Positions 15,301 through 42,891 of a stretch of 64,000 bases of DNA are shown here, piece by piece. The notes beneath the pieces are model-generated. The model had not been told where the DNA came from. It saw nothing but the letters and a program-made list of their open reading frames with translations, and made no database searches. The stretch is from a bacterium (GTDB taxonomy: Bacteria > Electryoneota > JAOADG01). The translations under genes and the position numbers were made by a program. The stretch is taken from positions 2,848,001 through 2,912,000 of the forward strand of contig OY820579.1 in the NCBI GenBank assembly GCA_963681965.1, read 5' to 3'. How positions within the stretch are numbered: position 1 is the stretch's first letter; every line of letters starts with the position of its first letter.

Positions 15301-15315
15301 TGTTTCGGTAAATCT

Positions 15316-15861: not shown

Positions 15862-15890
15862 AATGATACATTACCAATTTACACAGAAAG

Positions 15891-16514
15891 CTATCCCCGC
15901 CATTCACCGATATCGGAAAATGGACAATCGACTTCCCAATGAAACTTGCCATAACGAAAATTCGATTCCATACTGGAAACACCGCTATGAACCCAGATAT
16001 TTGGTTCAAGCATGGCATCACAGAATTTTATACAATAAAAATGAGTTATGGAATCACTACGAGCTTGATTTCTAAAATATTGTAAACCACCATGATAATT
16101 ACCAGAAGTATCGAATTGATAATCTGCCCAAAATTCTAGAATTTCGTCATTCAATCTGTGATACATCATTCGACTTCGCCATCGCAGTGTATCGCTTGTG
16201 CCAACATAAGTCGAATCATAGAAATACTTGTTAGGTCGTTTAACAAATTTCACATGAAGCTTTTCATTAACGGTTCCCGAGTCTGTTACAAAACATAGAG
16301 TTGAATCGCTCCAATGAACAGTGTTATCGGGATGAAATCCATGAAAACTAACAGGTAAACTATCGATAAACATTGTAGATGAATCGTAAAAATAACCTGC
16401 TTCAGCAACACCGTCCATAGCAATCCAGTGAAATCCATTAAAATGGATCGGAGCAGCAAGTGAAAGAGAGAATAAAATTGAACTAAACAGAATTACCAAT
16501 ATTGAGTGTCTCAT
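15891..16514 (-). CDS. Hypothetical secreted protein
   Basis: Signal peptide (MRHSILVILFSSILFSLSLA); GAGG RBS; follows the SBBP gene. Confidence 0.55.
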   Translation of the reverse strand: MRHSILVILFSSILFSLSLAAPIHFNGFHWIAMDGVAEAGYFYDSSTMFIDSLPVSFHGFHPDNTVHWSDSTLCFVTDSGTVNEKLHVKFVKRPNKYFYDSTYVGTSDTLRWRSRMMYHRLNDEILEFWADYQFDTSGNYHGGLQYFRNQARSDSITHFYCIKFCDAMLEPNIWVHSGVSSMESNFRYGKFHWEVDCPFSDIGEWRG

Positions 16515-16545
16515 GGAAAAATCCTCATTGAATGGTTTGTAAATA

Positions 16546-20565: not shown

Positions 20566-20640
20566 TGAAAACTCCTTTCAGAGATTCAATACCGTTAGCA
20601 GTATTGTGGGTAAAGTGTTAGCACCTCACCCCTACAAGTG

Positions 20641-20714
20641 TCGGGACGACTGGATTTGAACCAGCGACCCCTAGACCCCCAGTCTAGTGCGCTACCAGGC
20701 TGCGCCACGTCCCG
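20641..20714 (-). tRNA. tRNA-Pro(GGG), intact, CCA not encoded
   Basis: Cloverleaf: CGGGACG/CGTCCCG acceptor, GCGC D-stem, CTAGA-CTGGGGG-TCTAG anticodon arm, GCTGG-TTCAAAT-CCAGT T-arm. Confidence 0.97.
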
Positions 20715-21011
20715 TTGTGTTTCAAAATATTTCAATCCAATTCAGCATCTGCGATTGACCATCAAAAGGTATAAAAGCAAGACTGTTTGGGTTTGGACAT
20801 TTTGAACAGATTTCACTGCTTAATCAACCCATTTTATTAGCAGTTTCATTAGCAATTACAACACGTCAACAAATTCGCTAATGGCAGGTTAAACATGCCT
20901 TTCACAGCATCACTGTATAGTTACTGCTGTCAGGAATTCACGAATTTTATTAGCAACTGCATCGTGCAAGATACATTCTTTAACCTTATTAGTCAAGTTT
21001 CTACTGTAGTA

Positions 21012-21194: not shown

Positions 21195-22070
21195 CTACTG
21201 ATGCGTAGCATCATGCGGAGCATACACGAACTTGATAGAACTGAAAGCTTTGTCAATGGTACGTTGCCTGTAGTCTAGTCGTCGTACAACCTTTTCCCTT
21301 CTACCCAACAACGATTGTTGCAACCATATTCGTTCGACTTGATGCTTGTCTAGACAATGGCGCGCGACCATCGAAACAAAAGCAAGATCGCACCTGGAAT
21401 GATCATTATCATAATCAGAACAATCCCCATTTAACAACTTTGAAAACCGTTCCCCAAACCGATACAGCACAGCTTCAATAACAACACGATCTTCACAGCA
21501 AACAGGACATTCACGATCATTAGTCCATGATTGAACCACTGGAAGTGCTGGTTGATTGCTGATTATGTCGTGCAACTGTTCTTCACAATCCTGGATCATT
21601 AGGGGATATTGATGAAGAAATCTACCTGTCAGTGCAATGAAGCGGGATGTGTTGTAGACTTCGATTGATTGATCGGTAGATAGTTGTATGCGCCGATTGA
21701 TCTTGGTCTTGGTGGTTCGGATAAATGTGTGCAATCCCTTTCCTGATTGCGATACTTCAGTGTATGATTGCAGGTTTTGAATAATGCCTTTGACCCATTG
21801 GTTAATCTTATTGCCCGCATCGATTACATGATCGAAATCTATGGCAGTGAATGGATCGTGTTGGGTTAAGACAAACCCTATTCCATCGTACTTCTGCTTC
21901 ACAAATGTTGCAACACAATCGTGATAACTTGACCATGTTGATGGGTCGTTAATGCGCGCAACATGCCCCGTTACTTGGTAGGGTAACTTCGCTAATCGGG
22001 TTGAAGTTTGTACCAGTTTCCATAGCACAAACTGGTTGAATAACTTCAATTCATCTGGTATTGTAAACAT
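21195..22070 (-). CDS. NrS-1-like primase-polymerase (AEP plus helix-bundle domain, no helicase)
   Basis: IPDELK..QFVLWK, KLPY, NDPSTWS, GIGFVL, AIDFDH, YTEVSQSGKGLH, IEVY..RFIALTG, DHSRCDLAF. Start at ATG 22070 with AAGGA RBS. Confidence 0.85.
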   Translation of the reverse strand: MFTIPDELKLFNQFVLWKLVQTSTRLAKLPYQVTGHVARINDPSTWSSYHDCVATFVKQKYDGIGFVLTQHDPFTAIDFDHVIDAGNKINQWVKGIIQNLQSYTEVSQSGKGLHTFIRTTKTKINRRIQLSTDQSIEVYNTSRFIALTGRFLHQYPLMIQDCEEQLHDIISNQPALPVVQSWTNDRECPVCCEDRVVIEAVLYRFGERFSKLLNGDCSDYDNDHSRCDLAFVSMVARHCLDKHQVERIWLQQSLLGRREKVVRRLDYRQRTIDKAFSSIKFVYAPHDATHQ

Positions 22071-22147
22071 GGCGTTCCTTTCATGAAATGCCCCACAACT
22101 TGTTGCTGTGGGGCTTGCTATCTTCGACTTAACCGAACAACATCGCA

Positions 22148-22660
22148 CTAATCCAATGCAGTTGTAACGAATTCTTCATCTTCGGCAAGTTCCAATAACT
22201 TGCTGAATGTGTTGTTGCGAATTTCATCCAACCACAGCTTTTGTGCTGCCATTAAGATGTCACTACCTGTTGGTTTATCTGCCAACAACCCTTGGTCAAA
22301 CGCTACATCGATATAGCCGACATACCTGCAATCGGATGCCAACCAGTGGGTTAAATTGCTGATGTAACAATTGGGTTCGCATTCCAATAAAATGTCGCGC
22401 ATATCATCTTCATCACTGTCTTCATCCATATCGCAGATATCGGATAAAGTCGAATTCAGTTCTTCGTACACTGCATCATCGGGCAAATATTCACCATCAT
22501 TATGCGCTGCGAAGCAAACATCACGCATCCATTCAGGTGCGTTATCAGCCAAGCAATAAAATTGTTCCCCACTATTTCGGGTGCGTCGTTCCATCATCTC
22601 ATACATCATTTTTGCTAGCTTAATGATCCGCTGTTCTGTGCTTAGTTCGGTGGTTTCCAT
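22148..22660 (-). CDS. Highly acidic protein, Ocr-like DNA mimic candidate
   Basis: Hand count 40 D+E versus 13 K+R in 170 aa; the C-terminal half resembles T7 Ocr as recalled from memory. Confidence 0.55.
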   Translation of the reverse strand: METTELSTEQRIIKLAKMMYEMMERRTRNSGEQFYCLADNAPEWMRDVCFAAHNDGEYLPDDAVYEELNSTLSDICDMDEDSDEDDMRDILLECEPNCYISNLTHWLASDCRYVGYIDVAFDQGLLADKPTGSDILMAAQKLWLDEIRNNTFSKLLELAEDEEFVTTALD

Positions 22661-24341: not shown

Positions 24342-26036
24342 TTATCTGCTTAATATGATATCTTCATGAATAGTGCTATCTTCATAATCAGTTGCATTAT
24401 TAAATGCATCACGTGAATATTGTTTATCTTTCATATAGTTATTGCTTATCGCGTCTGCTTGCTTTTTACAAGCCCCGACCCCATGACCACAATTTGCTAA
24501 CTGTACATCATGACTACCATCCATATGAAGGGAATTATTCCCAAAGCCTCTTGTTTCAATTTCATTGTTAAGATGAATTGAATATTGCGGATGATCGATC
24601 ATCGTTACAGTATGCTTTTTCTGTTTACTGTTCATCGGTTTAATTGCTACTTGAAACGTAAATCTTCTATGTTGGTTCTGGTTCTTCCGATCCTGTTCAA
24701 TGACTTTAAGCTGGTAGACTTTCCAACCAGCACGAATATTCTTTATGAACTGACTGTTGCAAATCGGTATACTGAATGCGATATATCGTTCCCCTTTGAT
24801 CCCCAATAAGTCGCGCATCAGGATATGAACAATCGCTTTCTTTTTATGCACAAATTCAACGGTAGTGTATACTGAATACGTACTATAAACATCACGTTCA
24901 GAAGCATCCGCACAATTCAACAATAAATGTTGATCGCGTCTTACTTCAGTCAATTTCTTCCGCTTATCGAATGCATTCAGTAGATGTCGATTACGATTAC
25001 TTTTGATAACTGACTGCCATTCACCTTTCTGGTAGGTGTCTTCAACTTGTTCGAAGTATCTGTGTAATTCTGAAGTTGTTTTGAATGCAGTTGTTGATAA
25101 ATTCCGCTTCTGTTGAAACATGGTTCGGTATTCATCAATCGTAAGAAAAGTCGGAATACTTACTTGTTTCCGAATAAAATGCTTAATGCCAAAATGCGAA
25201 TAGATTGCAGTTGAATATGTCAATGATTGTTCAGATAGATCAAATCCTGTATGTGTCTTATTGTTCACTTCAATGATCGTTTTTCTTACTTTTCGATGTT
25301 CATTGTTCAAGATGATCCGATCCAATTCACCCTTTGTAACGGTAGCTACTTTACTACCATTATTGCTTGCTTTTGTCGAACTATGGTTGTTACTTTTCTT
25401 CGTCTGCTGTACGGTAGCTTTCTTAACACTAGAACCACTTTCATACCGACCTGAATTTGCTTTCACGATCTTCAAAATCGTTTCAGCTTTATTTAAACAA
25501 TCGTATTCTAACTGATCGTTATCCTTCCCAAAGAAGGGGGCGTATATCGCTGCTGGCAAGCCTTCTTGCTTTTTGGGAAATATGTCTAGACCTAGTTCAT
25601 ACGCATCTGGGACAATTGCACAAATGACATCACGCAACTGATTTGCATCAATCGAACTATCAATCAAAAACCAAAGATGAATACCTAGTCCAGATCGTGA
25701 ATGAACTTCCAGATATTTCAATCCAAGCTGATCCGCAGATTGTTTACTAGCATTAAGTGTCCCGTCAAAATCTGCTAATCCTTTGGAATGACAGCTTGAA
25801 TGATCGAAATCAATCGCAAACCAATTCGACTTGCCTAATTTATCCGCACTACGAAACCCTATCCGACATTTGCCTGCAAGATGTGATTTTACCGCTTCAT
25901 CAATTAGAAAACCAGGAATTTTGCAGTCTGTGGTTCCCATTTTTTTCGTCTTGGGATCACGACTAGTTTCCTTGATAATGCTACCAAGGAACTTTGAATT
26001 CTGCGAAATGTGTTGAAGGATTTCTACTGATTTCAT
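24342..26036 (-). CDS. TOTE-type AEP primase domain fused to an unknown C-terminal region
   Basis: HLAG...IG, WFAIDFD, SRSGLGIHLWF, DIFPK motifs. Confidence 0.7.
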   Translation of the reverse strand: MKSVEILQHISQNSKFLGSIIKETSRDPKTKKMGTTDCKIPGFLIDEAVKSHLAGKCRIGFRSADKLGKSNWFAIDFDHSSCHSKGLADFDGTLNASKQSADQLGLKYLEVHSRSGLGIHLWFLIDSSIDANQLRDVICAIVPDAYELGLDIFPKKQEGLPAAIYAPFFGKDNDQLEYDCLNKAETILKIVKANSGRYESGSSVKKATVQQTKKSNNHSSTKASNNGSKVATVTKGELDRIILNNEHRKVRKTIIEVNNKTHTGFDLSEQSLTYSTAIYSHFGIKHFIRKQVSIPTFLTIDEYRTMFQQKRNLSTTAFKTTSELHRYFEQVEDTYQKGEWQSVIKSNRNRHLLNAFDKRKKLTEVRRDQHLLLNCADASERDVYSTYSVYTTVEFVHKKKAIVHILMRDLLGIKGERYIAFSIPICNSQFIKNIRAGWKVYQLKVIEQDRKNQNQHRRFTFQVAIKPMNSKQKKHTVTMIDHPQYSIHLNNEIETRGFGNNSLHMDGSHDVQLANCGHGVGACKKQADAISNNYMKDKQYSRDAFNNATDYEDSTIHEDIILSR

Positions 26037-26968: not shown

Positions 26969-28417
26969 CTACTGGTTCAATTCATCCACAATGCCCCTGA
27001 ATTGTTCCAAAGCTGCTTCCAGATTTTCAGCAATATCCAAGGCTAGCACATCGGGATCAGGTAGGTTTGCACTGTCTTCAATGCTATCATCTTTCAACCA
27101 GAAGATATCTAAGCTGGCTTTGTCGCGTTGGATCAGTTCTTCGTAAGTGAAGGAATGATAGCGTTCGGTTTCAGTTCGTTCATGTCGGTTGGCAGGATTG
27201 TAACACTTCACAAAATCTTGCAGACTATCCAATGACATCTGGTTCGTTTTCAGTGTGAAATGCTGATTGGTGCGAAGATCATAAATCCACAATTTCTTTG
27301 TCCAAGGCGTTTCGCTGGCAGGTTTGTTGTCCATGAACAACACATTCGCTTTCACACCTTGCGCATAAAATATTCCTGTCGGTAGGCGTAACAACGTGTG
27401 TACATCGCACGCTTTCAGTAGCTTTCGTCGGATTGTTTCCCCCGCCCCACCTTCAAACAACACGTTATCGGGCACCACAATCGCTGCCCTACCTGTCACT
27501 TTCAACAGTGTTCGAACGTGCTGCAGGAAATTCAACTGTTTGTTTGAAGTAGTTGCCGAAAAGTCTTGGCGTTTGTAAGTGATCGTTTCGCGATCAGCTT
27601 TCCCTTCTTCATTGACAATCGTGATGCTGCTTTTCTTTCCAAATGGTGGATTTGTCATAACGATATCATAGTAGGTCTTCGGTTCCGACAGCAGACTATC
27701 ACGTACTTCGATCAAACTGTCTTCGCCACCGACACCATGAAGGAACAAATTCATCACACATAATCGACCAACATTGTCGACAATATCGCATCCTGAAAAC
27801 GTTTCCAACTTCAAAAACGTCTTCTGGTCGCGATCCATCTGATATTGATGCGATAAGTAATCGTGTGCGGCAAGGAAGAAACCGCCCGTACCACAAGCAG
27901 GATCGTGAATGGTTTGCAAGGGTTTCGGGTTCATCACTTCGACAATCGCTTTGATCAAACTGCGCGGGGTAAAATACTGACCTGCGCCACCCTTCACGTC
28001 TTCCGCATTCTTCTGCAACAACCCTTCGTAGATTTCACCTTTGATATCGATATCCATACCCAACCACGTTTCACCATTGATCAATTCGATCAACCGTTTC
28101 AGTTTGGCGGGGTCTTGGATGCGGTTCTGTGCTTTCTTAAAAATGATACCCAATGCGCCCGACATCTTTCCCAGTTCGGACAAGGTATGTCGGTATTGTA
28201 CTTCCAAAGCATCACCATCGGGTTTGCATAACGCTTGCCAATCAATCCCTTCGGGGATTGGGGATACATGCTTCAGTTGCTTGGTTTCATCTGCCATTTT
28301 CAGGAATAGCAGGAAGGTCAACTGTTCTACATAATCTCCATAGCTTACACCATCGTCACGCAAGACACTGCAATAGTTCCAAAGTCGCTGTACGATTGTC
28401 GCTGCTTCGTTAGCCAT
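26969..28417 (-). CDS. hsdM: Type I RM methyltransferase subunit
   Basis: LWNYCSVLRDDG, GAGQYFTPR, DPACGTGGF, NPPF (amino-MTase catalytic motif). Confidence 0.95.
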   Translation of the reverse strand: MANEAATIVQRLWNYCSVLRDDGVSYGDYVEQLTFLLFLKMADETKQLKHVSPIPEGIDWQALCKPDGDALEVQYRHTLSELGKMSGALGIIFKKAQNRIQDPAKLKRLIELINGETWLGMDIDIKGEIYEGLLQKNAEDVKGGAGQYFTPRSLIKAIVEVMNPKPLQTIHDPACGTGGFFLAAHDYLSHQYQMDRDQKTFLKLETFSGCDIVDNVGRLCVMNLFLHGVGGEDSLIEVRDSLLSEPKTYYDIVMTNPPFGKKSSITIVNEEGKADRETITYKRQDFSATTSNKQLNFLQHVRTLLKVTGRAAIVVPDNVLFEGGAGETIRRKLLKACDVHTLLRLPTGIFYAQGVKANVLFMDNKPASETPWTKKLWIYDLRTNQHFTLKTNQMSLDSLQDFVKCYNPANRHERTETERYHSFTYEELIQRDKASLDIFWLKDDSIEDSANLPDPDVLALDIAENLEAALEQFRGIVDELNQ

Positions 28418-28797
28418 TATATTTTGTCCCACTTGTCGATGTAACGTTGAAACTTTGGAAGTACTTCACCATGTATATCGCGAAGGACTACATTAAATCT
28501 ACCATTAGCTGCTACATGATTATTTATCAAGCTTAGCAAGCGTCTAGTTTTTATGATGACCCATTGGTCTGTGTCTTGGAAGTAGAACACACAAATATCA
28601 TGATTGGTTGATTGAAGTTGAAAAGGATAGTTCGGTCTTTGGCGGTTACTGTACCTTTTCACTTCAATCTTCAGGAACTTACCTTTGCCATTATTAACTA
28701 ATAAATCGCAATGGTCGTTACATACAGGCGTGTAAACTGAAAAGCCACGACTTCCAAATTCTGATGCTGCTAAAGCTTCTGACCAATCGCTAGGCAT
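28417..28797 (-). CDS. Small PD-(D/E)XK endonuclease-like protein
   Basis: SEALA...GFSVYTP...CDLLV...KIEVK; ATG 28797 overlaps the hsdS stop. Confidence 0.65.
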   Translation of the reverse strand: MPSDWSEALAASEFGSRGFSVYTPVCNDHCDLLVNNGKGKFLKIEVKRYSNRQRPNYPFQLQSTNHDICVFYFQDTDQWVIIKTRRLLSLINNHVAANGRFNVVLRDIHGEVLPKFQRYIDKWDKI

Positions 28798-30166
28798 TCT
28801 TCTTTCCTTTCGCACTGGGTTTACGGGTTCTGGGATTGGATGTTGATTGCGATTGTGCACGTTGGGATTTGATGCGTTCCAGCAGGATGGATGCTGGTTC
28901 ATCGGTGGGGTCTTGGGGAACAAGTTTTCCTGCAAAGGCACGCTTCAGGATCGATTGACGCAAGCGGGTCGATTGGGCTAGGGCTTGATCGATGGTCTGT
29001 TCGACTGCATCTGCTACCGAAAAACGGCGTTCGATTTCAGATACGATTTGCTGCTGTTCTGCTGTTGAAGGCAGTGGAATAAGGAAATCTTCAATTACCT
29101 GCTTTGTTAAGGCTTGGCGGGTCGTTCCCACTTGAATACTTTCAATAAACCGTTGCATTTCTGGGGATGCGATGTAATAACTAAGAAATTTGGGTTCCAA
29201 TGAAGATTTACATCGGATGATACTGACATGTTGGTTCACGTTAGCGGGACATACTTCGTTTGGAACGACACAAACGCGACCGATAGATGCACCTGTAATA
29301 TTTAATAATACATCATTGATTACGACACGGGTTCCCGTCATTTCTTCGTCTTGTTCTGTAGAAATGTGGACTAACCCATCTAATACAAATCGATTGAAGT
29401 GAACATTCTGGCTACGAATGAAAGGAATGCCAGAATTTGTGTACACATCTTTTCCACCACGTGGGGTACTTCCACTTCCCACCTTAGAAGAATGCTTTGC
29501 CAATTTTTCTTTTGGAAATTGTTGTAATACACCATTTTCGATAGATGGATCGCGAAATGATTTGGCTAATACCGATTGCCGATACCGTTTCAGTTCACGC
29601 TTCACATTCTTCAGTGCGACTACCCCAGCATCCAGCTTGCTGAATAGTTCTTCAATCTTCGCGACAATCCGTTTCTGTTCGGGAAGGGGTGGTAAGGGAA
29701 ATTGAAATTCTTCAATGTCTGTAGAACTAATGTTTGGTTGGGCTGCACCATAAGCTTCTTTAAGAATTGTTTCGCGAATGACAGCTAAGTAATGATATAG
29801 AAGTTGGAAATCAACTTGATTATTCGTAAAAAATCTGAACCGTCCAACACGTTGATTTAATAAGGGGGTATTATCGAGTTTGAAAATTCCATACTTACCT
29901 GTTGTTGCACCAGACATTGCAATTAAAACGTCACCTTTATGCACTACAAATGATGCGTTATCTTTTAGTGCCTTTTCAGATAAATAAACTGTATCGTTAT
30001 TAAAGCTAATACATCCTTCAACTATATTGGATATGCGTATAAGTGGTACACCATCTTTTATGAATTCAGAACTTTTAAAAGCGTATCCACCTTGTAACTG
30101 GCAGAATTCACCAAGTTTCGTCCATACCCAACTTGATGGTAATACATCATTATTATTGTTGTTCAC
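28790..30166 (-). CDS. hsdS: Type I RM specificity subunit
   Basis: LPSSWVWTKLGE, two TRDs, PLPPLPEQKRIV and PLPSTAEQQQIV conserved regions, GKLVPQDPTDEPAS tail; probable GTG start 30166. Confidence 0.93.
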   Translation of the reverse strand: MNNNNNDVLPSSWVWTKLGEFCQLQGGYAFKSSEFIKDGVPLIRISNIVEGCISFNNDTVYLSEKALKDNASFVVHKGDVLIAMSGATTGKYGIFKLDNTPLLNQRVGRFRFFTNNQVDFQLLYHYLAVIRETILKEAYGAAQPNISSTDIEEFQFPLPPLPEQKRIVAKIEELFSKLDAGVVALKNVKRELKRYRQSVLAKSFRDPSIENGVLQQFPKEKLAKHSSKVGSGSTPRGGKDVYTNSGIPFIRSQNVHFNRFVLDGLVHISTEQDEEMTGTRVVINDVLLNITGASIGRVCVVPNEVCPANVNQHVSIIRCKSSLEPKFLSYYIASPEMQRFIESIQVGTTRQALTKQVIEDFLIPLPSTAEQQQIVSEIERRFSVADAVEQTIDQALAQSTRLRQSILKRAFAGKLVPQDPTDEPASILLERIKSQRAQSQSTSNPRTRKPSAKGKKNA

Positions 30167-31076
30167 GATTTGCCAGTTCTTCTTGAATCTGTTGTAAACG
30201 TTGATACATGTCGAGTGGATACCCTTTCGGATTAACAACAAATGCAGGTTCACCGCCCATTATCGTTATTCGTCTGTTGTCATGATCAGGTCGTTCAGGC
30301 CAATCAATTGCCTTTACATCATCCCGAAATAGAGTTATTTCTTCAGTTTCGTTCAATCCGATAGCTGTAGTAAGTTGTGGAAGGTCTTTGAAATATGGCT
30401 TATTACATATCAGAAAAGCGATGGGGAAGCACTTATAAATTTGAATAAAACCAATATCATTCCATACCGTCCCTGCTGGCATCATTACATCACGCATTAG
30501 TACCATTGGATCATAAGGATAGAACCAGTAGAACACATTGATGTCACTAGGTATTTCAATTGATGTGTCTAAAACAAATGGTCGTGCTTTGTCATCAAAG
30601 TCGGAAATATGACCATCAACTTTCATAGCAATAAGATGACCTAGAATTGATCTTATTATAGGTAACGTCTTCAGTTTCGAATGAATTCTAGTTCGAGAAC
30701 TGCGTGTACCCTTCATCATTAGTTTATACTTTACATCGTTCACAGTCAGAACCAAAGCTTGATCACCCTTACTAAGAATTTCATTGTTACATTTGTTACA
30801 AAGTGTAGTAAAATGTAATCCGTTTCTTGAAGTAAATACTTCCCTTTGATTTCCCATTTTTAATTCTTTTGGTAGATAGAGTAAAAGAAAACTTTGGATT
30901 AAAACTTCTTTATGTAATTGCACTTCACTGGCTGGAACATGATCTTTTGTCAACTTACTTTGAAGCCCACAGATATTACAAACAGGGGTTTTACCTTGTT
31001 TATGGAATGGGTCATCGTTTCCCTTATCGTTCATGTTGCTGTACCTGTCAATTTTGTCCCAATTCAATACTATCAC
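30153..31076 (-). CDS. HNH endonuclease-like protein
   Basis: CNICG...LTKDHVP...LCNKCNN zinc/HNH pattern. Confidence 0.65.
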   Translation of the reverse strand: MIVLNWDKIDRYSNMNDKGNDDPFHKQGKTPVCNICGLQSKLTKDHVPASEVQLHKEVLIQSFLLLYLPKELKMGNQREVFTSRNGLHFTTLCNKCNNEILSKGDQALVLTVNDVKYKLMMKGTRSSRTRIHSKLKTLPIIRSILGHLIAMKVDGHISDFDDKARPFVLDTSIEIPSDINVFYWFYPYDPMVLMRDVMMPAGTVWNDIGFIQIYKCFPIAFLICNKPYFKDLPQLTTAIGLNETEEITLFRDDVKAIDWPERPDHDNRRITIMGGEPAFVVNPKGYPLDMYQRLQQIQEELANREQQ

Positions 31077-32434
31077 CGCTTGTTTTGATGTGAAAGTAAT
31101 TCCTTTAAGACATCAATTATTGGAATTGCATCCCCTTCCTTCGATGAATAACCAGTCGAATGATGTGTGAACATTGCTTCAGCAGCACGTTGTAAGATTT
31201 GTTGTTTGGTTTCTTCGCTGATTTTTCGTTCTGTCAACGGTAGGAAAGTTGTAACACAATTCTGACGATGCTGATTGATCACGTAATTATGCTGATGAAA
31301 ACGGTAGTTCTTCACAGCGAAGATCAATAAGTAATACAAGGCAGTAAGCAATGCAATCTTTAAAATCAGTTGCTGGAATAATGAATAAGGAAGTCCGAAT
31401 AACGTTGCTTGATTTGAAGACAAACTGTAGCTGTTACAAGCATTACAAGCACTAACTATCCAGAAGATTATGATTGCAACAACAATCGTACATCCAATAC
31501 CTATCACGTACTTAAGCCACCGATCAATCATTTTCTGATGGTATATTGCAGTTTCATCAAAAGCTTTTATCCATTTGAATTGCGCGCCTTCTGCGGTTAA
31601 CAATTCTGCTGCTGATAGGGTTTCTTCAAGTTTTTTTACCTTTTCTACAACATCTTCTTGAATTACATTCGCACGAGTAAGAAAATCAGTTATTACTTTA
31701 TAAAAGACCTTGTAATACGATGCAATTTGCGATGCATACTCATTTACAAATTCATAACTTGTTTCTAATTTTTGTTCGCTTAACCTATCGATCATAAAAC
31801 CCATCGTTTGAATTGCTTGCGTTGCGGTTTTGATTTCTTCTACAGGAATTTGTTCGTAATTGATAGTTCGAAAGGGTTTTAACAAAGCAAATATCTTATC
31901 GAATACTTCAATCAAACCTGTCTTGTTTGCTTGTTTTAAAAATTCGACTAATGTATCGCGTTCGATCAACAGAATTCTTTCAACACTTTGGTCAATAATT
32001 TGCGCCCAAGGTACGTTCTGTTCATTGGATTGCATATTATCACTTCTTTTTATGCTATCTTGAAACGGTATTACGTGCGATAAAAAATGTGAAATAATTT
32101 GATAATCCTTCTTATAACTTATACTAGCGTCAGTCAGCATCATCATCCATATCTGCTTATCGGTTTCTGAAGTTAATGCCAGTATCTTACCAAATAAATC
32201 TGATATCTTTTCTACGACTGCGAGTACTGGGGTAATTTCGATATCTGGAATGACATCCAGACGCAAATCCTTTAAAGGTGAAATCAACGTAAAGTAATCT
32301 GTTACGACTTTTTCAATTGCGTTGTGATTAATGACCTTCGATTTACTTTTTAAGGCTACTAAGTCATAAGATAGAACGGCTTCGACTGCGTGCTTCAATT
32401 CCAATTGTGCGATTGTGTCATTTTCAGAAATCAT
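31073..32434 (-). CDS. Helical repeat / coiled-coil protein with 2 C-terminal TM segments
   Basis: Two similar ~120-aa helical units, two hydrophobic segments, KNY..H.HN..INQHRQN tail. Confidence 0.65.
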   Translation of the reverse strand: MISENDTIAQLELKHAVEAVLSYDLVALKSKSKVINHNAIEKVVTDYFTLISPLKDLRLDVIPDIEITPVLAVVEKISDLFGKILALTSETDKQIWMMMLTDASISYKKDYQIISHFLSHVIPFQDSIKRSDNMQSNEQNVPWAQIIDQSVERILLIERDTLVEFLKQANKTGLIEVFDKIFALLKPFRTINYEQIPVEEIKTATQAIQTMGFMIDRLSEQKLETSYEFVNEYASQIASYYKVFYKVITDFLTRANVIQEDVVEKVKKLEETLSAAELLTAEGAQFKWIKAFDETAIYHQKMIDRWLKYVIGIGCTIVVAIIIFWIVSACNACNSYSLSSNQATLFGLPYSLFQQLILKIALLTALYYLLIFAVKNYRFHQHNYVINQHRQNCVTTFLPLTERKISEETKQQILQRAAEAMFTHHSTGYSSKEGDAIPIIDVLKELLSHQNKR

Positions 32435-32447: not shown

Positions 32448-35201
32448 TTATCCCGCTAACACCTTGTTCAATTCATCCATCACCCGTTGATAATCCTTGC
32501 CAAACAATTCACTGAATTTGTAAATCCCACCCTTCAAATTGAAGGGAATGCTTTCAAAATCGTCTTCGGTAATTTCGATACTGGTTGCAATATGTTCTTT
32601 GATCATCTGCAACCATTCTAACTGTTGGGGTGTAAAACTGCGACCCGACTGCTGTTGCTGTTGCAACCAATCGTGAAAGCGGTGTTCCACAATATCGATA
32701 AATGGGGTTAAATCGTCTGCCATTCCACTGGTAAACTTCACCAGCGATACCAGATCGGTCAATACCGATTTCGGTTGTCCCTTCACCCTGCTGTGTTCCA
32801 ATTGATCGTAACAATGCCACAAGCGTTCGGGAATAAATCCGTTCGGTGGTCGCTTGATGGTGTCGGCTAATTCCCTGATTGCATCGTAAGTCAGTTTCCG
32901 TTTGCCGTAAGGTTGGCTGTACAATATCTGTAATGCCGTTATTTCATCGCGATGGTCTTGCAGGTACTGTTGCCACGATTGAACATACTGTTGGGCTGCT
33001 TCCTTCGCCTTGCTGTTGAACCCTGCTTCCAGCACGAAATCCTGCGATACGATGTCGATGGTCTGTTCAAGCAGTTGTTTCGTTTCAATCAGCAGATTGC
33101 GTAGTTTTGGATCGTGAAACGGTTTGGCAACAGTTTCCGCAAGTTCCCCTGTAACGATTTTCAGTTGTTCGACAGTGGGGTTATCGGTCGCAAATTTCTT
33201 GCAGGCTGTTTCTACCTGTACATCGGGATCGAAGGCTGTGAATAACGGCAGGATCAATTCAGTCATCGATGCCACACCTGCGACATCCTGAATACGTTTG
33301 CGGTCTTCCTTCGACAATTGCCGATCCATTTGCGCTAACCGATTGCCCAATGAAATCAGATAATCTTCTTCACGATTACCTGCAGCAATCGCAAGTAACA
33401 ACCTATCGAAGGGTATGGATTTCTTGCGTTCCAGTGGTCTGCTATCCCCTTTATCGCTTTCGCAGACACCAATTGCATCGACAATAACGAAATGGGTTTT
33501 GGCTTTCGCATCGGGTGACACTAATTGCAATGCGTTGCTATCGATGACCCTGGTGCCCCTTCCCTTCATCTGTTCGAAGTAAACTGCGGATTTGATGTCG
33601 CGCATGAATAACAGACATTCCAGCGGTTTGATATCGGTGCCTGTCGATATCATGTCGACCGTGACTGCGATGCGTGGGAAGTATTCGTTGCGAAATGCTG
33701 CGATCAAGGCTTCGGGGGTTTCACCCGTGGTTCTGTAAGTAATCTTCTTGGCAAAGTCTTTGCCCTTGCCGAATTCATCCCAGATAATATTCACGATATC
33801 TTCGGCATGACTATCGGTTTTGGCAAAGATTAAAGTCTTTGGTACTTCGGTTCGACCAGGGAAGATTTCCGTGAACAATTTATCGCGAAAGGTTTGGATT
33901 ACGGTGCGGATTTGATCGACCATGACAATATCTTTATCCAACTGGGTCGGGGCATAATATAAATCTTCATCCAACAGTTCGTAGCGTACTTTGCGGGTCA
34001 TCTTGTTGCGTTTATCGATGTATTCGCCCGCTTCGACTTTGCCACCTTTCACACTAGCATTCGTCTTAATCCGATACACTTCGTAACCGACATTCACCCC
34101 TTCGGCAATTGCGCGCTGATGGTTGAAATCCATCACCTGATTTTGTTTGAAGAACCCCAGGGTCTGCTTCGACGGCGTTGCCGTTAATCCAACAATGAAT
34201 GCATCGAAATAATCCAATACCTGTCGCCACTGGTTGTAGATGGATCGATGACATTCATCGGTAACAATAAAGTCGAACGCTTCAATCGGGATGGTGGGAT
34301 TATATTCAATAGGCTTGGGATCGTTGTCCAAGGTTAAATCGAAGGCAGAATGTTCATCCAATTCGGGATCGAATTCAGTTCCCTTCAACATCGAAAACAA
34401 GCGTTGGATTGTCGTGATTGTTACGTTGCAGACGGGATCGATGGTGTTCGATGACATCAATTGGATGTTGTACAGTTCAATGAATTTGCGGTGGTCGTCG
34501 GGGGTTTCGTACTTCTGAAATTCAGTCGATGCCTGAATGCCCAATGTTCTGCGATCCACCAGGAACAAGATATGTTTCGCACCAGCGAATTTGATCAACC
34601 GATAGATGAAACTTACTGCCAAAAAACTTTTTCCACTTCCAGTCGACATGCTGATCAATGCGCGTGGTTTGGATTTCGCAAAGCTGGCTTCCAGGTTCGT
34701 GATAGCTTCGATCTGACAATCACGCATTCCCTTGGTAATGATCGGGGGCATTTCGCGCATTCGGGCACGCAATGTGTTTGGTTCTTGTAGCCATTCGGCA
34801 AGCTTATCGGGTTTGTGGAAAGCGAATACTCCGCGAGGTCTACAGTCAGGATCGCGGATGTCGTAAAACATCGTTTCTTCACCTGTACTGACATAACCGA
34901 ACGTAAGTGCTTGCTTGGCAATGGGGATGTGCTTCAGTTTACTGCGAAGATAGCTATCGGTTTGATCGACCACGCCTGATAGTGTATCGCCCTTTTTCTT
35001 GGCTTCAATCACACCTACAGGGCTGCCTTTTACGAACAGAACATAGTCTACAAACCCAACATCGGTGGGATATTCGCGGACTGCAACCCCAGGAAAAGAC
35101 AAGTTTAATTCATCGATATTCTGTAGCTGCCAACCTGCTGCAGTCAACAGTTCATCAATCTTGTCGCGGGCTTCTTGTTCAGGTTTCTGTGGTTGTGGCA
35201 T
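32448..35201 (-). CDS. hsdR: Type I RM restriction subunit (EcoEI/EcoAI-like C-terminus)
   Basis: VDYVL...VIEAKK nuclease, MSTGSGKS, DECHRS, GLTATP, QMKGRGTR. Confidence 0.95.
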   Translation of the reverse strand: MPQPQKPEQEARDKIDELLTAAGWQLQNIDELNLSFPGVAVREYPTDVGFVDYVLFVKGSPVGVIEAKKKGDTLSGVVDQTDSYLRSKLKHIPIAKQALTFGYVSTGEETMFYDIRDPDCRPRGVFAFHKPDKLAEWLQEPNTLRARMREMPPIITKGMRDCQIEAITNLEASFAKSKPRALISMSTGSGKSFLAVSFIYRLIKFAGAKHILFLVDRRTLGIQASTEFQKYETPDDHRKFIELYNIQLMSSNTIDPVCNVTITTIQRLFSMLKGTEFDPELDEHSAFDLTLDNDPKPIEYNPTIPIEAFDFIVTDECHRSIYNQWRQVLDYFDAFIVGLTATPSKQTLGFFKQNQVMDFNHQRAIAEGVNVGYEVYRIKTNASVKGGKVEAGEYIDKRNKMTRKVRYELLDEDLYYAPTQLDKDIVMVDQIRTVIQTFRDKLFTEIFPGRTEVPKTLIFAKTDSHAEDIVNIIWDEFGKGKDFAKKITYRTTGETPEALIAAFRNEYFPRIAVTVDMISTGTDIKPLECLLFMRDIKSAVYFEQMKGRGTRVIDSNALQLVSPDAKAKTHFVIVDAIGVCESDKGDSRPLERKKSIPFDRLLLAIAAGNREEDYLISLGNRLAQMDRQLSKEDRKRIQDVAGVASMTELILPLFTAFDPDVQVETACKKFATDNPTVEQLKIVTGELAETVAKPFHDPKLRNLLIETKQLLEQTIDIVSQDFVLEAGFNSKAKEAAQQYVQSWQQYLQDHRDEITALQILYSQPYGKRKLTYDAIRELADTIKRPPNGFIPERLWHCYDQLEHSRVKGQPKSVLTDLVSLVKFTSGMADDLTPFIDIVEHRFHDWLQQQQQSGRSFTPQQLEWLQMIKEHIATSIEITEDDFESIPFNLKGGIYKFSELFGKDYQRVMDELNKVLAG

Positions 35202-35206
35202 AGAAA

Positions 35207-36193
35207 TTATACTGTCTTCAATTTTGGTGTAACGTCATTGAAATTTGGCTTTTGACCCACTATCCTAAGGTACATCCGAACGAAGACATTTTTTTCCAAC
35301 CATTGAAACCTTTTTTCATATGCTGCAACAATACTTAATTCATTTTCAGATAATGCGGAACATGATTGTTCTAATTTATGCAATTTGTTTTTAACTTCTT
35401 GAAACAACTGTTCTAACACCGCAATACGTGATGTGTTACTTGATAATTCAGTTACGAATTTAATCATCTTTGCTTTCACTTGATCCAGATCCCTTTCGAG
35501 TATGGTTAGTCTATTAATTGCATATGCGAAGTTCTTTTCAAGTTCCGTAAGATGTTTATTCGATTGATCAATTATTAAATTTAAAGTGTCAATCTTCTGC
35601 AGCACTTCAAGCAATTCGTTCTGAATTTGTTTGAATTTTAAATCGAAACTATCTGCCATCGTTTTTACATTATTTATTGTCTTTTTCAAAACATCATAGT
35701 TGTGTACTAAGTTGTCGCCTTCATGATCAGTTAGAAATGAAGCAAGTGCATCAAGACGATCCAACCTTGCTTTTATCACGGTAAAGTTGTCTTTTGATAC
35801 TTGTCCAAGTTCTTTCAGGATTTCGCTTTGTTCGTAAACAGCTTCATAGATACAGTGGGTAGATATTGCGGTTCGAAAAATCATTTCAGATGTTTCGGCT
35901 TGTGATTGAGACATCAATCTTTGGATTGAATATTCGCGTTTCTTGTCATCGTCGCTGAACCATTCACCAATTCTTTTCCAGATTGATAAATTTTCTGCTA
36001 CAGTTAAGTTAACATCAATAATCCTTGATTTGTCCACTATCGAAGAAATTAGTTCACGATTTCTTACAGCATTTTGTTTAAGTACTTCGACACGTTTTCC
36101 ATAGGACATAGCCAATTCAGCATCATGTTCAACTGCTTCCAAAACACTTGACCTGTATTCTACAATAGATTGAATTTCTTCATTGTATGACAT
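35207..36193 (-). CDS. Long coiled-coil hypothetical protein
   Basis: Heptad-rich C-terminal half; coupled to the upstream gene (TAATG overlap). Confidence 0.7.
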   Translation of the reverse strand: MSYNEEIQSIVEYRSSVLEAVEHDAELAMSYGKRVEVLKQNAVRNRELISSIVDKSRIIDVNLTVAENLSIWKRIGEWFSDDDKKREYSIQRLMSQSQAETSEMIFRTAISTHCIYEAVYEQSEILKELGQVSKDNFTVIKARLDRLDALASFLTDHEGDNLVHNYDVLKKTINNVKTMADSFDLKFKQIQNELLEVLQKIDTLNLIIDQSNKHLTELEKNFAYAINRLTILERDLDQVKAKMIKFVTELSSNTSRIAVLEQLFQEVKNKLHKLEQSCSALSENELSIVAAYEKRFQWLEKNVFVRMYLRIVGQKPNFNDVTPKLKTV

Positions 36194-37194
36194 TAGAATA
36201 CCCCATCAGTAAATGTCGATTTCATGATCGCAACATTACTAGAAGTCAATAAATTATTTCTGTTTGTCTGGTCGTACACAAATTCTGCTTCGTCATTTAC
36301 TAATACTACAGCCTTATTAGCCTTTTCTGAAGCCTGTCGATTGAAACGAAATTCATCAGCAAACTTCTTATCCATTTGTGCTTGTACTTTCAATCTGTGA
36401 ATACTCTTCGACCACAGAAACCTAGCTGCCATCGAAGCAGGTACACTAACAAAGGGTGTGAAGGGTGCAAGAATAATATTCGTAATCGACCCAATCGCAG
36501 TTCCAGTAGCACGTTCAGCAACCATACTAATAATGTCTTCTGTCGAAGTTCCCTTGTTGTAGGCGTAGATCGCTGACACTAGAATTGCTGATGCTGCAAG
36601 ATATGGGAAGTGAAAGTTCACTTGATCCTGTGATCCATCTACTAACGTATTCATGTGTTGGTTAAGTTCATCGGTAGACATACCACTGTCAATGTAATTG
36701 ATACCATCGATGTGTTGTTCAACATGATCCGATGTCGTCAGTACATTATGAATTTCAGGATACTTGTCTGCATGTTCGTAGATATCTGATAAGTTCACCT
36801 TTGACTGAATATAATCAACGACATTGTGATCATGATCATAGATCACATAATCATAACCAGGTTGCGTTGCACTGTCGGCTAATTCAGCATGTAAACCGTC
36901 AGTAAGATGCTGGTTCAAGTTGTCTAGATTGTGAAGTTCGAAATACTTTCCTTCAATACCATTTAATGCCCCTTGCAAGCTATTAGGATCGTCTATTTTG
37001 GACTGAACAAAGTCAACAAGGCTTGTGTGTTCAGCAACATTCGGGTACTGCAGTTGAAAGGCTTGAACAAACAGTGGATCAAGTTTACCATCAGTGGCAT
37101 GTCCAGCAATAAATTCAGCAGTTTCCTGGGTGCCCAATAATATTGCATCGAATATCGATTGCGCTTCTTTTTTTTCCTTGGTTCTTGTGTCCAT
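36193..37194 (-). CDS. PD-(D/E)XK-like (E..PGxD..QxK) protein with C-terminal hydrophobic helices
   Basis: GKYFE, QPGYD, YIQSK, KYPEI; hydrophobic PYLAASAILVSAIYAY and GTAIGSITNIILAPFTPFVSVP segments. Confidence 0.6.
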   Translation of the reverse strand: MDTRTKEKKEAQSIFDAILLGTQETAEFIAGHATDGKLDPLFVQAFQLQYPNVAEHTSLVDFVQSKIDDPNSLQGALNGIEGKYFELHNLDNLNQHLTDGLHAELADSATQPGYDYVIYDHDHNVVDYIQSKVNLSDIYEHADKYPEIHNVLTTSDHVEQHIDGINYIDSGMSTDELNQHMNTLVDGSQDQVNFHFPYLAASAILVSAIYAYNKGTSTEDIISMVAERATGTAIGSITNIILAPFTPFVSVPASMAARFLWSKSIHRLKVQAQMDKKFADEFRFNRQASEKANKAVVLVNDEAEFVYDQTNRNNLLTSSNVAIMKSTFTDGVF

Positions 37195-37214
37195 TTGGTT
37201 CGCCTTTGGTCAAC

Positions 37215-37421
37215 AAAAAAAACAACCCAACACTTTAACGTGCTGGGTTGTTCTGGTTACTATTCGAACAAGTACAAATAGACCGTACATGTAAGAATGT
37301 CATCAATCGATGACTTCGTGATCAAGATGGTTAGAAAAGCATCCCGAAATAACCAACTGTCACATTCAGATTATTTTACCCAGCAAGCCTTAAGATATGA
37401 AACAAGTTAAAGCGTTGTCAA
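37215..37421 (-). promoter_or_regulatory. Putative promoter, leader and terminator hairpin of the defence operon
   Basis: TTGACA (37421-37416)-N18-TATCTT; motif GGCTTGCTGGGTAAAAT; hairpin AACAACCCA...TGGGTTGTT plus T-run just before the first gene. Confidence 0.5.
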
Positions 37422-37432: not shown

Positions 37433-38458
37433 CTACAAAGCAATTCTATTGACCGTTTCCCTAAGACTTTCTGGCTGCAAGTGGGCATAGAACTTTTCAG
37501 TCGTACTGACTGTAGTGTGTCCAAGAAGTTTGGCTATGTGGTAAATCGACACACCATCTGCAGCAAGCCACGATGCACACGAATGACGTAATGAATGGAA
37601 GTGTAGCTTGTCGTCTAGACCAAGCTTCCTGATGTATTGTTTCAGCTTATGGGTCGCCCAGTACCCACTAATTGCCTTACCATCATCCATTCGAAACACC
37701 AATCCATCATTCAACAAGTCACGTCGTTTCTGTAGCAACAAACAAGCTGCTTCACCTAATGGAATTGTTCGCTGCTTTCCCTGTTTCGTTTGATAGTTTT
37801 CACTGCTTTGGATGTGAACCCAACGTTTATTCATGTCCACTTGTTGCCAGGACAAGTTAATAATTTCACCCCTTCTTAAACCTGTCAGTATTGCGAATAG
37901 GACAACATCACGTAACCACAGTTCATTAATCGCTTCAAACAACTTCTGGAAGTCATCCTGCCCGAAAAACGTTTTCGTACATTCAGCAACACGAACAAAA
38001 GGAATATTCTTGAAAGGATTGCTTTCAATCCATCCCCAGTTCATTGCAATTGTAAAAGCTGATCGAAGGGTTCGAAGTTCCAGGTTTACAGTTACAGGCT
38101 TCACCTGGGTTATGCGAAGGGTTTTGTATGTGTCGATGTTGTGTTTATTGACACTACCTATCCTAATGTTACCAACTGCATTCTGAAATGCCATGAATGC
38201 ATAATGAAATAGATCGATAGTGCCTTTGGTGTAATTGGATACGCCATTCTTCAGGAATTCTTCCTGAAATTCTGTTAGCGTACGATGTGATTTGGGACGT
38301 TTATGAATTTTTTCGAAGGAAGTCAAAACCTTTAATGCTTCTGACTTCTTCGTACAACGGGTGGTCTTCCACTGCGTCTTTCCATCATCACTTTGCGAAA
38401 GGATATACCAGACACCGTTCGCCCGACGGAATAGACTTAAATGATTTGGACTAGACAT
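37433..38458 (-). CDS. Tyrosine recombinase/integrase of element 2
   Basis: LTGLRRGE, HFHSLRHS, LGHTT, TEKFYAH; shares VKPVTVN.ELRTLRSAF with integrase 1; probable ATG 38458. Confidence 0.92.
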   Translation of the reverse strand: MSSPNHLSLFRRANGVWYILSQSDDGKTQWKTTRCTKKSEALKVLTSFEKIHKRPKSHRTLTEFQEEFLKNGVSNYTKGTIDLFHYAFMAFQNAVGNIRIGSVNKHNIDTYKTLRITQVKPVTVNLELRTLRSAFTIAMNWGWIESNPFKNIPFVRVAECTKTFFGQDDFQKLFEAINELWLRDVVLFAILTGLRRGEIINLSWQQVDMNKRWVHIQSSENYQTKQGKQRTIPLGEAACLLLQKRRDLLNDGLVFRMDDGKAISGYWATHKLKQYIRKLGLDDKLHFHSLRHSCASWLAADGVSIYHIAKLLGHTTVSTTEKFYAHLQPESLRETVNRIAL

Positions 38459-38542
38459 TGCTTTTCCATTAGCAATGCCATTAGCACTATTGAATTTCGT
38501 GTTCGGAACTATAGCATCTATCAAGACTTAGCTGTGTATCAT

Positions 38543-38592
38543 CCTAGACCCCCAGTCTAGTGCGCTACCAGGCTGCGCCACGTCCCGTTGTG
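38543..38592 (-). repeat. att site: displaced 5' half of tRNA-Pro (50-bp direct repeat of 20670-20719)
   Basis: Exact match from 5 nt upstream of the tRNA 5' end through the anticodon stem; no T-arm. Confidence 0.95.
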
Positions 38593-41784: not shown

Positions 41785-42891
41785 ATGCCTTCGAATCACG
41801 ACGTTTTTATCTCACATTCCTCATCCGACAAAATAATTGCCGATGCAGTCTGTGCAAAGTTAGAAGCCTCACACATTCGGTGTTGGGTTGCTCCTCGCGA
41901 TATTATTCCCGGCGAGACATGGGCAGGTTCGATATTCAACGCGATAACAAACTGTAAAGTCATGATTATGATCCTATCGGGGAATGCAAATTCATCTAAA
42001 CATGTTATCCGAGAAGTTGAAATTGCTGTGAAACAAAATGTAGTAATTGTTCCATTTCGAACTGAATCAATCGAGCCATCGCCTGATTTGGCTTACTTTC
42101 TCGGTGCAACTCATTGGCTCGATGCCATGACACCTCCTCTAGAAGCACGAATACAAGATTTAATAAGCTGTATTGACGGATTTCTCAATTTGAATCGGAA
42201 ATCCAAGCGAAATCAATCGAATATAATCCTTTTATCGAAAGAAATATCTCCTGAAAGCGTTGATCCGCCCAAATCGCCTGTTCGATCAACTTCCGAACCA
42301 GTTTCTCAACCAAAACCGGCACTATCCGCTCGAGAAGAGCAGACTTCACCCGCGAAACTTGCAGATCCACCCTACTTAAAATATGATCTTGAACGTGCGG
42401 AGTCTGGTCAAGTTGTCGAAATGCGCAAGATGGGTCGACGCTATGAATCCGGTGATGGTGTTCCGAAAGATATGTCCAAAGCGATTATGTGGTACCGAAG
42501 ATCAGCCGAACGTGGTTATGAATACGGGATGTGTGATCTGGCAAACTGTTACGCACAGGGAAAAGGCGTCCCTCAAGACACCAACATGGCTTTAATGTGG
42601 TATCAAAAGGCTGCTGATAGTGTCTTCAGTTGGCAGGCAGGTGCTGAAGCGTTGGCAAATTGGTATGCTAAAGGTGGCGACGGTCTGACTCAAGATTTGG
42701 CACAAGCAGTAAAATGGTATAAAAAAATCGCTGAACGGGGGTATCCAAGTGACATCTATCAGGTTGCTGAATGTTACGCCAAGGGTGGAATCGGTTTACC
42801 AAGGGATTTGAAAGAAGCAAAAGCTTGGTATCAGCGAGCTGCCGAGAAGGGTCATAAAGTCTCTCAAGATCGCCTTAAAGACCTTTACTAG
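41785..42891 (+). CDS. TIR domain plus Sel1 repeat protein
   Basis: DVFISHSSSD, CWVAPRDI.PG, HVIREV; four Sel1 units (G.GVPKD..KA..WY..AA..G). Confidence 0.88.
   Translation: MPSNHDVFISHSSSDKIIADAVCAKLEASHIRCWVAPRDIIPGETWAGSIFNAITNCKVMIMILSGNANSSKHVIREVEIAVKQNVVIVPFRTESIEPSPDLAYFLGATHWLDAMTPPLEARIQDLISCIDGFLNLNRKSKRNQSNIILLSKEISPESVDPPKSPVRSTSEPVSQPKPALSAREEQTSPAKLADPPYLKYDLERAESGQVVEMRKMGRRYESGDGVPKDMSKAIMWYRRSAERGYEYGMCDLANCYAQGKGVPQDTNMALMWYQKAADSVFSWQAGAEALANWYAKGGDGLTQDLAQAVKWYKKIAERGYPSDIYQVAECYAKGGIGLPRDLKEAKAWYQRAAEKGHKVSQDRLKDLY

Follow-up and report, generated by a model that had tools for sequence, protein, structure and literature searches.

In the 64,000-nucleotide (nt) stretch of bacterial DNA analyzed here (contig OY820579.1, positions 2,848,001 to 2,912,000; the whole stretch is referred to as the window), two adjoining genes, designated gene 1 and gene 2, would form an accessory cassette against phage, transcribed together with a type I restriction-modification (R-M) system on an integrative island at a tRNA-Pro gene. 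Gene 1 would contribute a divergent, short-form protein of the PDC-M72B type, and gene 2 a helical companion. The probability assigned to this reading is about 0.48, that is, a little under one half. It builds on the layout of the genes, on the membership of gene 1 in a widespread family with strictly conserved catalytic-type residues, on the predicted topology of its core, on a partner architecture that recurs among its relatives, and on the defense-rich neighborhoods in which many of these relatives are found. The genes at the head of the operon are as follows.

36193..37194, minus strand: gene 1, open reading frame (ORF) of 333 amino acids (aa), ATG start
35207..36193, minus strand: gene 2, ORF of 328 aa, ATG start
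32448..35201, minus strand: hsdR, type I restriction subunit of 917 aa (Pfam EcoEI_R_C 8e-39, ResIII 2e-34, HSDR_N)

The stop codon of gene 1 and the start codon of gene 2 have one base in common (TAATG), and the ATG of hsdR, at 35201 on the same strand, lies 5 nt past the TAA of gene 2. An initial annotation, made from the letters of the sequence, had placed both ORFs at these positions and had described them as a translationally coupled pair heading the hsd genes, and the layout bears this out. The hsdR product is also recognized by PADLOC (REase_I, 1.6e-45).

The gene 1 protein is composed of the following parts.

N-terminal part: helices
Residues ~70-190: PD-(D/E)xK-like core
Residues 198-242: hydrophobic helical hairpin
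Residues 247-328: long C-terminal helix

A word-indexed search with this protein returned one relative; exhaustive searching with phmmer yielded 415 representative clusters at E<=1e-3, of which 186 reach 1e-10, the best relative standing at 3e-51 with 37% identity. The family is found in Acidobacteriota, Pseudomonadota, Myxococcota, Bacillota, Chloroflexota, Latescibacterota, and one archaeal metagenome-assembled genome. PDB sequences gave no match to gene 1 in a single-sequence search and one noise match (E 0.22) in a profile search. The motif of gene 1 reads G82-K83-x-x-E86, P112-G-Y-D115, I129-Q130-S-K132, and in the 44-sequence family alignment the residues P51, G82, K83, E86, N94, G100, D115, K132, and P146 are invariant. 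Counted over 144 family representatives covering the core, conservation of the motif residues is as follows.

K83: conserved in 144/144
E86: conserved in 144/144
D115: conserved in 143/144
Q130: conserved in 135/144 (S in 7, N in 2)
K132: conserved in 144/144

At the level of the aligned sequences, conservation of this motif is far above chance. The E...PGYD...IQSK spacing to which the initial annotation had drawn attention is real by these counts, and its interpretation of E..D..QxK as a restriction-endonuclease-fold signature is backed by the conservation together with the model topology and the in-register profile match described below.

Membership of the family was further defined with PADLOC. 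Of the 44 aligned members, 43 match PDC-M72B (two models), the best at 3e-23, and the sole miss is the window's own gene 1, which has no match at E<=1. Gene 1 is thus placed in PDC-M72B by transitive homology only, the relatives matching the PADLOC models and gene 1 matching the relatives by phmmer. This divergent, unmatched copy shows that some of the family escapes the PADLOC models in their present form. The initial annotation had taken the module to lie outside the catalogues of named systems and had proposed PADLOC as a check; gene 1 itself does go unmatched there, and the claim fails for the family, which is already catalogued as a candidate, although it has no Pfam or NCBIfam model. The PDCs, or phage defense candidates, are 145 putative single- and multi-gene systems that Payne et al. 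collected by "guilt by embedding", their sources being genes lodged within BREX, DISARM, or type I R-M systems; PADLOC has since incorporated them (2024 preprint, 10.1101/2024.01.29.577857). The companion component PDC-M72A is an ankyrin-repeat protein and is encoded directly downstream of a long-form relative in one locus (L024, 1.2e-35); in L057, too, the relative is followed by an ankyrin protein, a different one. Gene 2 has no match to M72A or to ankyrin repeats.

The structure of the gene 1 protein was modelled with AlphaFold2 from a 44-row alignment, with a mean predicted local distance difference test (pLDDT) value of 88.4 and a predicted template modelling (pTM) score of 0.62. In the model, the core is composed of helix 70-96, strands 102-105, 116-119, and 125-131, helix 135-144, and strand 150-153, which is alpha-beta-beta-beta-alpha-beta, the canonical PD-(D/E)xK order. 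The catalytic-type residues take up corresponding places, E86 on helix 70-96, D115 at the start of strand 116-119, Q130 on strand 125-131, and K132 at the end of that strand. The top Foldseek rows for the model are nearly all PD-(D/E)xK nucleases at weak scores; EcoO109I is best with an E of 0.013, and BsaWI, the influenza PA-N endonuclease, 3ijm (restriction-endonuclease-like), NucC, HindIII, AgeI, and EndoMS are among the further rows. Alignment with VIA-align gave Z values of 6.4-5.3 to PA-N, BsaWI, AgeI, and Bax1 over residues ~33-192, a range which the tool rates as common. A whole-model VIA search, which is independent of Foldseek, was topped by generic helical bundles (Z<=8, likewise rated common) and was set aside.

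The family profile was also compared with an 11-sequence alignment of Mrr_cat, made from genome loci matching PF04471. The hhalign comparison gave a score of 25.2 over 87 columns (P 0.0055, probability 6.6%), and the key residues are in register, with FE on FE, (PG)WD on (GG)ID, and QxK on QxK (family versus Mrr_cat). Of 30 column shuffles, none scored above 17.8, and reversing the alignment gave 15.2, against 25.2 for the true pair. The Mrr_cat Pfam model itself matched 0/44 relatives at E<=0.1, and gene 1 matched no Pfam family at E<=1. The core is likely an Mrr-type restriction-endonuclease-fold domain, membership in PF04471 not being formally established, and gene 1 would encode a metal-dependent nuclease.

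The two C-terminal hydrophobic helices noticed in the initial annotation are present in the model as helices 198-213 and 218-242, both rich in small residues. Their Kyte-Doolittle (KD) maxima over 19 residues are 1.33 and 1.54, respectively. Among 122 family representatives, the median for the hairpin region is 1.64, and 65 of them reach 1.6. The hairpin could be a borderline membrane hairpin and could equally be a buried bundle. The domain DUF697 (PF05128), a lead which came just from the automatic name of an Atlas cluster, was rejected for this region, its hhalign score of 15.8 lying inside the range of the shuffles (9.2-18.4).

The genomic setting of the family was surveyed in 80 genome loci, fetched with a 21-sequence family alignment, and in 27 metagenome loci besides. 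Over the 80 loci, no neighboring family is conserved at the BLAST level, the largest cluster comprising 6 loci. An immediately upstream ORF on the same strand that ends in a hydrophobic segment is found in 22 of the 80 (L002-L011, L015, L035, L048, L050, L052, L060, L067, L070-L073, and L076), and such anchored partners also occur in 4 of the 27 metagenome loci (L128, L129, L130, and L134). Among 18 of the 22 loci with the upstream ORF inspected, the partner overlaps the gene 1 homologue by up to 70 nt or is separated from it by up to 65 nt; as a rule the two overlap or lie no more than about 10 nt apart. The partners are about 75 to 390 aa long; their last 45 residues have KD values of 1.57-2.92 and are preceded by a heptad-rich helical stretch. 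A strict heptad-plus-anchor test, which is a heuristic of the authors and not a published predictor, is passed by 15/22 partners versus 6/624 non-adjacent ORFs. What recurs is an architecture, not one gene.

All relatives with an anchored partner are short forms, like gene 1 of the window, and two short forms (L020 and L026) are without one. The remaining loci mostly carry long forms, which have an N-terminal extension of 50-400 aa and no separate partner. This division is reflected in a maximum-likelihood tree of 70 rows, built by a quick search. Long forms make up 46 of the 48 rows of one starred clade there, and gene 1 of the window falls into another starred set (99), in which 20 of 22 rows have an anchored partner. 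Its nearest relative by identity is the protein of L035 (30%). In the literature and libraries searched, no description of a tail-anchored coiled-coil partner of the short forms was found, and this recurring partner seems to be new.

Gene 2 differs from the partners of the short forms in lying downstream instead of upstream, in having no anchor, and in its dissimilar sequence. The initial annotation had described its product as an extended coiled coil. In line with this, modelling from the single sequence predicts helices throughout, the longest of them spanning residues 160-249, although with low confidence (pLDDT 53.5), and 165 of 328 residues pass the heptad heuristic of the authors. The KD maximum is 0.95, so that the protein is without a hydrophobic segment or anchor. 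Pfam, PADLOC, NCBIfam, and PHROGs gave coiled-coil noise alone; no homologue was found among near-length or longer proteins, nor with phmmer among the ORFs of 81 loci, and no downstream gene similar to gene 2 occurs in the 27 metagenome loci. In the ESM Atlas the best score was 0.77, below the useful level. Assignment to the Lamassu or SMC-like ATPases was rejected (LmuB E 0.14; SMC 7e-5, at 20.7 bits versus a cut-off of 567), and so was kinship with the partners found upstream in the relatives, for which hhalign gave a probability of 0.4% and BLASTP, against the L035 partner, an E of 1.1. Gene 2 is predicted to encode an all-helical, coiled-coil-like orphan protein, and the combination of gene 1 and gene 2 is unique to this island among everything searched. 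The initial annotation had looked to co-occurrence of homologues as a further check on the module; as gene 2 is without homologues, conservation of the exact pair cannot be shown. In complex prediction, gene 1 (alignment A1) and gene 2 reached scores of 0.29 and 0.28, the mark being 0.32; this uncontrolled result weighs neither way.

The defense-island setting put forward in the initial annotation finds support in the neighborhoods of the relatives. A Pfam run on the 150 nearest neighbors of family members revealed, among conflict- and mobility-related proteins, Cas2, Cas3, Cas6, Fic (3 loci), HipA, NERD (3 loci), integrases, transposases, Imm33, WYL, and ParE. The PADLOC scan of neighbors (E<=1e-12) covered 102 of 130 proteins of at least 300 aa within three genes, 18 proteins annotated as housekeeping or partners being left out, and matched 36 proteins in 31 of the 80 loci. 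Types found are Cas1, Cas3, Cas6, Cas10, CARF, type I R-M (4 loci), restriction enzymes of types III and IV, NERD-UvrD, AbiD, SoFic, and other PDCs (S01, S02, and M26); about 8 of the 31 defense loci depend on partial or generic-domain matches (protease, TPR, mad3). Relatives of the window's own Hsd proteins are encoded near the family in L015, L018, L024, L039, and L068, and PADLOC and BLAST clusters add L027, L037, L042, and L075, so that at least 9 of the 80 loci have type I R-M parts close to a family member.

In five loci (L007, L008, L010, L012, and L020) the relative stands directly beside CRISPR-Cas genes; in L012 it overlaps the cas2 stop, in L008 it precedes cas6-cas10, and in L007 it precedes a CARF-HEPN gene. 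In some lineages, the gene 1 family may be a CRISPR-linked accessory.

Downstream of hsdR, the operon of the window continues as follows.

31073..32434, minus strand: protein of 453 aa between hsdR and hsdS, with hydrophobic segments C-terminal to a long helical stretch at the N-terminus
30153..31076, minus strand: Cys-rich protein of 307 aa between hsdR and hsdS (phrog_21495 at 8e-13, a family without functional annotation)
28790..30253, minus strand: hsdS, specificity subunit (Pfam Methylase_S 2e-39, two stretches)
26969..28432, minus strand: hsdM, methyltransferase subunit (Pfam N6_Mtase 2e-66, HsdM_N)

The GC content is 0.365-0.381 for the pair and 0.355-0.358 for the genes of the 453 aa and 307 aa proteins, as opposed to 0.465-0.468 for hsdR. 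With the pair and the two embedded genes far more AT-rich than hsdR, the operon is a mosaic, and this base composition would fit an inserted cassette. By the logic of guilt by embedding, the 453 aa and 307 aa proteins, encoded between hsdR and hsdS, are defense candidates in their own right. The former has no match above the Pfam cut-off and none in PADLOC, and the latter matches neither Pfam nor PADLOC. The hydrophobic segments of the 453 aa protein lie near residues 305-375, which gives it the same build of a long helical part plus membrane segments as the partners of gene 1 relatives; phmmer relatives of it were not found in the loci of the gene 1 family. An ORF of 174 aa (28417..28941, minus strand) between hsdS and hsdM overlaps each of them and has a PDDEXK_5 match below threshold (E 3e-4, 21.2 bits versus a cut-off of 26.1).

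Upstream, the operon is preceded by a structured leader.

37195..37421, minus strand: 5' leader between the integrase stop and gene 1, with a promoter-like site at 37421..37392 and a strong terminator-like hairpin at 37254..37219

The hairpin has a stem of 15 pairs followed by a T run and ends ~20 nt before the ATG of gene 1. The leader folds at -64.7 kcal/mol (z-score -4.40), and none of 200 shuffles is equally stable. Promoter-like sites occur at chance level in a sigma-70 scan (30 versus 31.6 expected), and Rfam gave no match to the leader above the gathering score, the sub-threshold matches including Thr_leader with 24.9 bits versus 55. The hairpin may be the terminator of the integrase gene or a read-through control element of the operon. 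Given the structured leader with its terminator-like hairpin, expression of the gene 1 operon may be conditional.

The operon is part of a 17.9 kb integrative island at a tRNA-Pro gene, which is delimited by perfect 50 nt repeats and encodes a tyrosine integrase.

38543..38592: 50 nt direct repeat at one island end, 100% identical to 20670-20719 at a spacing of 17873
37433..38524, minus strand: tyrosine integrase of the island (Pfam Phage_integrase 1e-34)
24342..26036 and 21195..22148, minus strand: two replication-type genes of the island (AEP-TOTE primase-like and NrS-1-polymerase-HBD, respectively)
20670..20719: the other copy of this repeat (50 nt), at the opposite island end and overlapping tRNA-Pro
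20640..20714, minus strand: tRNA-Pro(ggg)

Within 41 genomes searched, namely the window's own and 40 host relatives, the gene 1 family occurs in the window's genome only. Horizontal acquisition of gene 1 fits these data, its family being present in none of the 40 host relatives, and it would have arrived with the island. The primase-like protein (7e-11) and the protein with the NrS-1 polymerase helix-bundle domain (3e-5, below cut-off) probably constitute the replication module of the island. The repeats cover the 5' part of the tRNA gene, the 3' part being usual. Directly on the 3' side of tRNA-Pro there is a second integrase (19537..20565, minus strand), followed by a stretch of low GC content (0.33-0.41 at 15001-18000), which points to another island in tandem. 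A gene at 41785..42891 on the plus strand, some 3 kb beyond the 17.9 kb island, encodes a TIR domain fused to Sel1 repeats (TIR_2 7.8e-21; Sel1 9.6e-34).

If the pair is an accessory anti-phage cassette, the nuclease-fold protein of gene 1 would be its constant effector, and a variable partner would sense, gate, or aim it. Most short forms would use an anchored coiled coil as this partner and some long forms an ankyrin protein; in the window, the part would fall to a soluble coiled coil. The hairpin 198-242 may hold the gene 1 protein at the inner membrane, helped in the relatives by the anchor of the partner. On infection, the effector would cut the incoming DNA or else, as an abortive response, the DNA of the host. 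Co-transcription with type I R-M would make for layered defense, as for TgvAB.

Several points weigh against this interpretation. The gene 1 protein itself has no match in Pfam or PADLOC (both E<=1), NCBIfam, or PHROGs; PDC-M72 is itself a putative defense system, and the string "PDC-M72" was not found in the literature searched. The structural matches to nucleases are weak throughout, at Z about 6 and with no Foldseek match for the gene 1 model at E<=1e-3, and the sequence profile match to Mrr_cat has a probability of just 6.6%. At 1.54, the KD maximum of the gene 1 hairpin is below the usual transmembrane threshold of 1.6. Gene 2 is without a homologue, unlike the usual partners, downstream instead of upstream, and unanchored, so that its link to gene 1 consists in operon position. 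The branch of gene 1 is long (1.33) and the tree search was quick, for which reasons its exact place in the tree is unsure. Many relatives adjoin housekeeping genes (LepA, FtsA, MutS, GcvP, and peptidases), and the count of 31 defense loci in 80 is raw, without a background rate. Finally, with a terminator-like hairpin just 5' of gene 1, expression of the operon would be only putative. Taken together, the interpretation offered in the initial annotation, a coiled-coil sensor with a nuclease or membrane effector, is partly supported.

In a rival explanation, gene 1 would act alone or with the Hsd complex, and gene 2 would be unrelated, fast-evolving cargo on the same transcript. Such a cargo role is unlikely. 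In its favor are the orphan nature of gene 2 in the near-length, longer, and locus searches, its dissimilarity to the usual partners, the prevalence of long-form loci without a separate partner, and the case of Shield, in which ShdA alone suffices according to PMC10270631. The one-base overlap of stop and start, however, points to coupled translation, the two genes are alike in their low GC content, and the family is paired with some coiled-coil protein in 22 of 80 loci. These pairings also lend themselves to a bolder reading, which is rather doubtful at present: the short forms with their upstream tail-anchored coiled coil might constitute a distinct, undescribed two-component system, consisting of a membrane-tethered Mrr-like nuclease and a coiled coil that would act as spacer or sensor at the inner membrane, for example at the point of phage DNA entry. 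The window would then hold a derivative of this system, with a soluble coiled coil in place of the anchored one and with the cassette tied into a type I R-M operon behind a structured leader that bears a terminator.

There are two further explanations. The pair might serve the island or the cell envelope rather than defense, in processing DNA at the membrane during transfer or integration, in excluding rival elements, or in membrane remodelling. Its position next to the integrase, the AEP-primase-like replication gene of the island, the many relatives beside housekeeping genes, and single relatives beside dynamin-like GTPases and beside a DUF697 membrane protein agree with such a role. It is nevertheless improbable, for relatives are frequent beside CRISPR-Cas and R-M genes and turn up in many settings that are unrelated to one another and lack integrases (7 of the 80 loci hold an integrase akin to that of the window), and none of 64 pattern matches to the family in viral contigs was confirmed (0/64). 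Alternatively, the nuclease-fold domain might be a non-cleaving sensor of nucleic acid, with membrane disruption by the hairpin as the toxic output. Helices 1-30 and 198-275 do superpose on helical bundles of membrane proteins, such as TRIC and the transmembrane domains of pentameric channels, at Z 7-8, but this is within the range common for helical models; the hydrophobicity of the hairpin is near the transmembrane threshold across the family, and inactive PD-(D/E)xK folds are known in conflict systems (PMC11090510). Retention of E86, D115, and K132 in 143-144 of 144 representatives is what would be expected of an active site, and it makes a purely sensory domain very improbable. The accessory anti-phage cassette is kept as the preferred reading.

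The interest of the family lies in its wide distribution, with 415 representative clusters that bear a PADLOC candidate name as their only label. If it is active, a membrane-linked, Mrr-like nuclease effector with interchangeable partners would join the defense repertoire. The residues E86, D115, and K132 and the recurring tail-anchored partner are direct handles for experiments.

Among known systems, PDC-M72 is the one to which gene 1 would belong, by transitive homology. The M72B family was drawn from embedding in type I R-M and other systems, and gene 1 likewise rides with type I R-M; the window differs in lacking the ankyrin A component, gene 2 being a predicted coiled coil, and in that its pair heads the hsd genes instead of lying between them. 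TgvAB and PrrC, too, are small accessory cassettes that have their orientation and transcript in common with hsd genes. TgvAB consists of two genes, both of them needed, and provides layered defense from within a type I R-M operon of Vibrio (PMC11411939); PrrC is named among the type I R-M-embedded cassettes in 10.1101/2024.01.29.577857. Both are of unrelated families (GmrSD-like and ABC-ATPase anticodon nuclease, respectively) and are placed between hsd genes. Lamassu, with its SMC-like LmuB, and the CoCoNuTs combine a long coiled coil with a nuclease effector and are often near type I R-M (PMC11090510); gene 2, in contrast, has no ATPase heads, and in the Pfam scan the window is without McrB GTPase and McrC. 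With Mrr_cat, the catalytic domain of Mrr-type type IV enzymes (PF04471), the gene 1 family has the order and spacing of FE...D...QxK in common, to which it adds the invariant G82-K83 and the hydrophobic C-terminal hairpin.

By analogy, Shield would be the closest validated counterpart of the gene 1 family. ShdA is described as the product of an extra gene in Pseudomonas type I R-M operons, in which an RmuC-like nuclease is joined to a long coiled coil and a transmembrane helix (PMC11090510), and as a membrane-bound RmuC-domain protein that is sufficient for defense and degrades DNA in vitro (PMC10270631). RmuC (PF02646) was rejected as the identity of the gene 1 family: there is no Pfam match, and the hhalign score against an 11-sequence alignment (15.9) is inside the shuffles (9.9-22.0). 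RmuC is found neither in the window's genome, which is 99.9% complete, nor in its relatives (0/3 of its own family, 0/6 of family f2); across the 31 genomes searched, 19 have a RmuC match, in contrast to the window's genome and 9 close relatives. Common to both systems are a membrane element, which would be the hairpin in gene 1, a long coiled coil, a nuclease domain of the PD-(D/E)xK superfamily, and a frequent location in type I R-M operons. The parts united in ShdA are split over two genes in the window, with gene 2 unanchored (KD 0.95 versus 1.54 for gene 1). If active, the gene 1 family would thus represent a split-gene counterpart of Shield.

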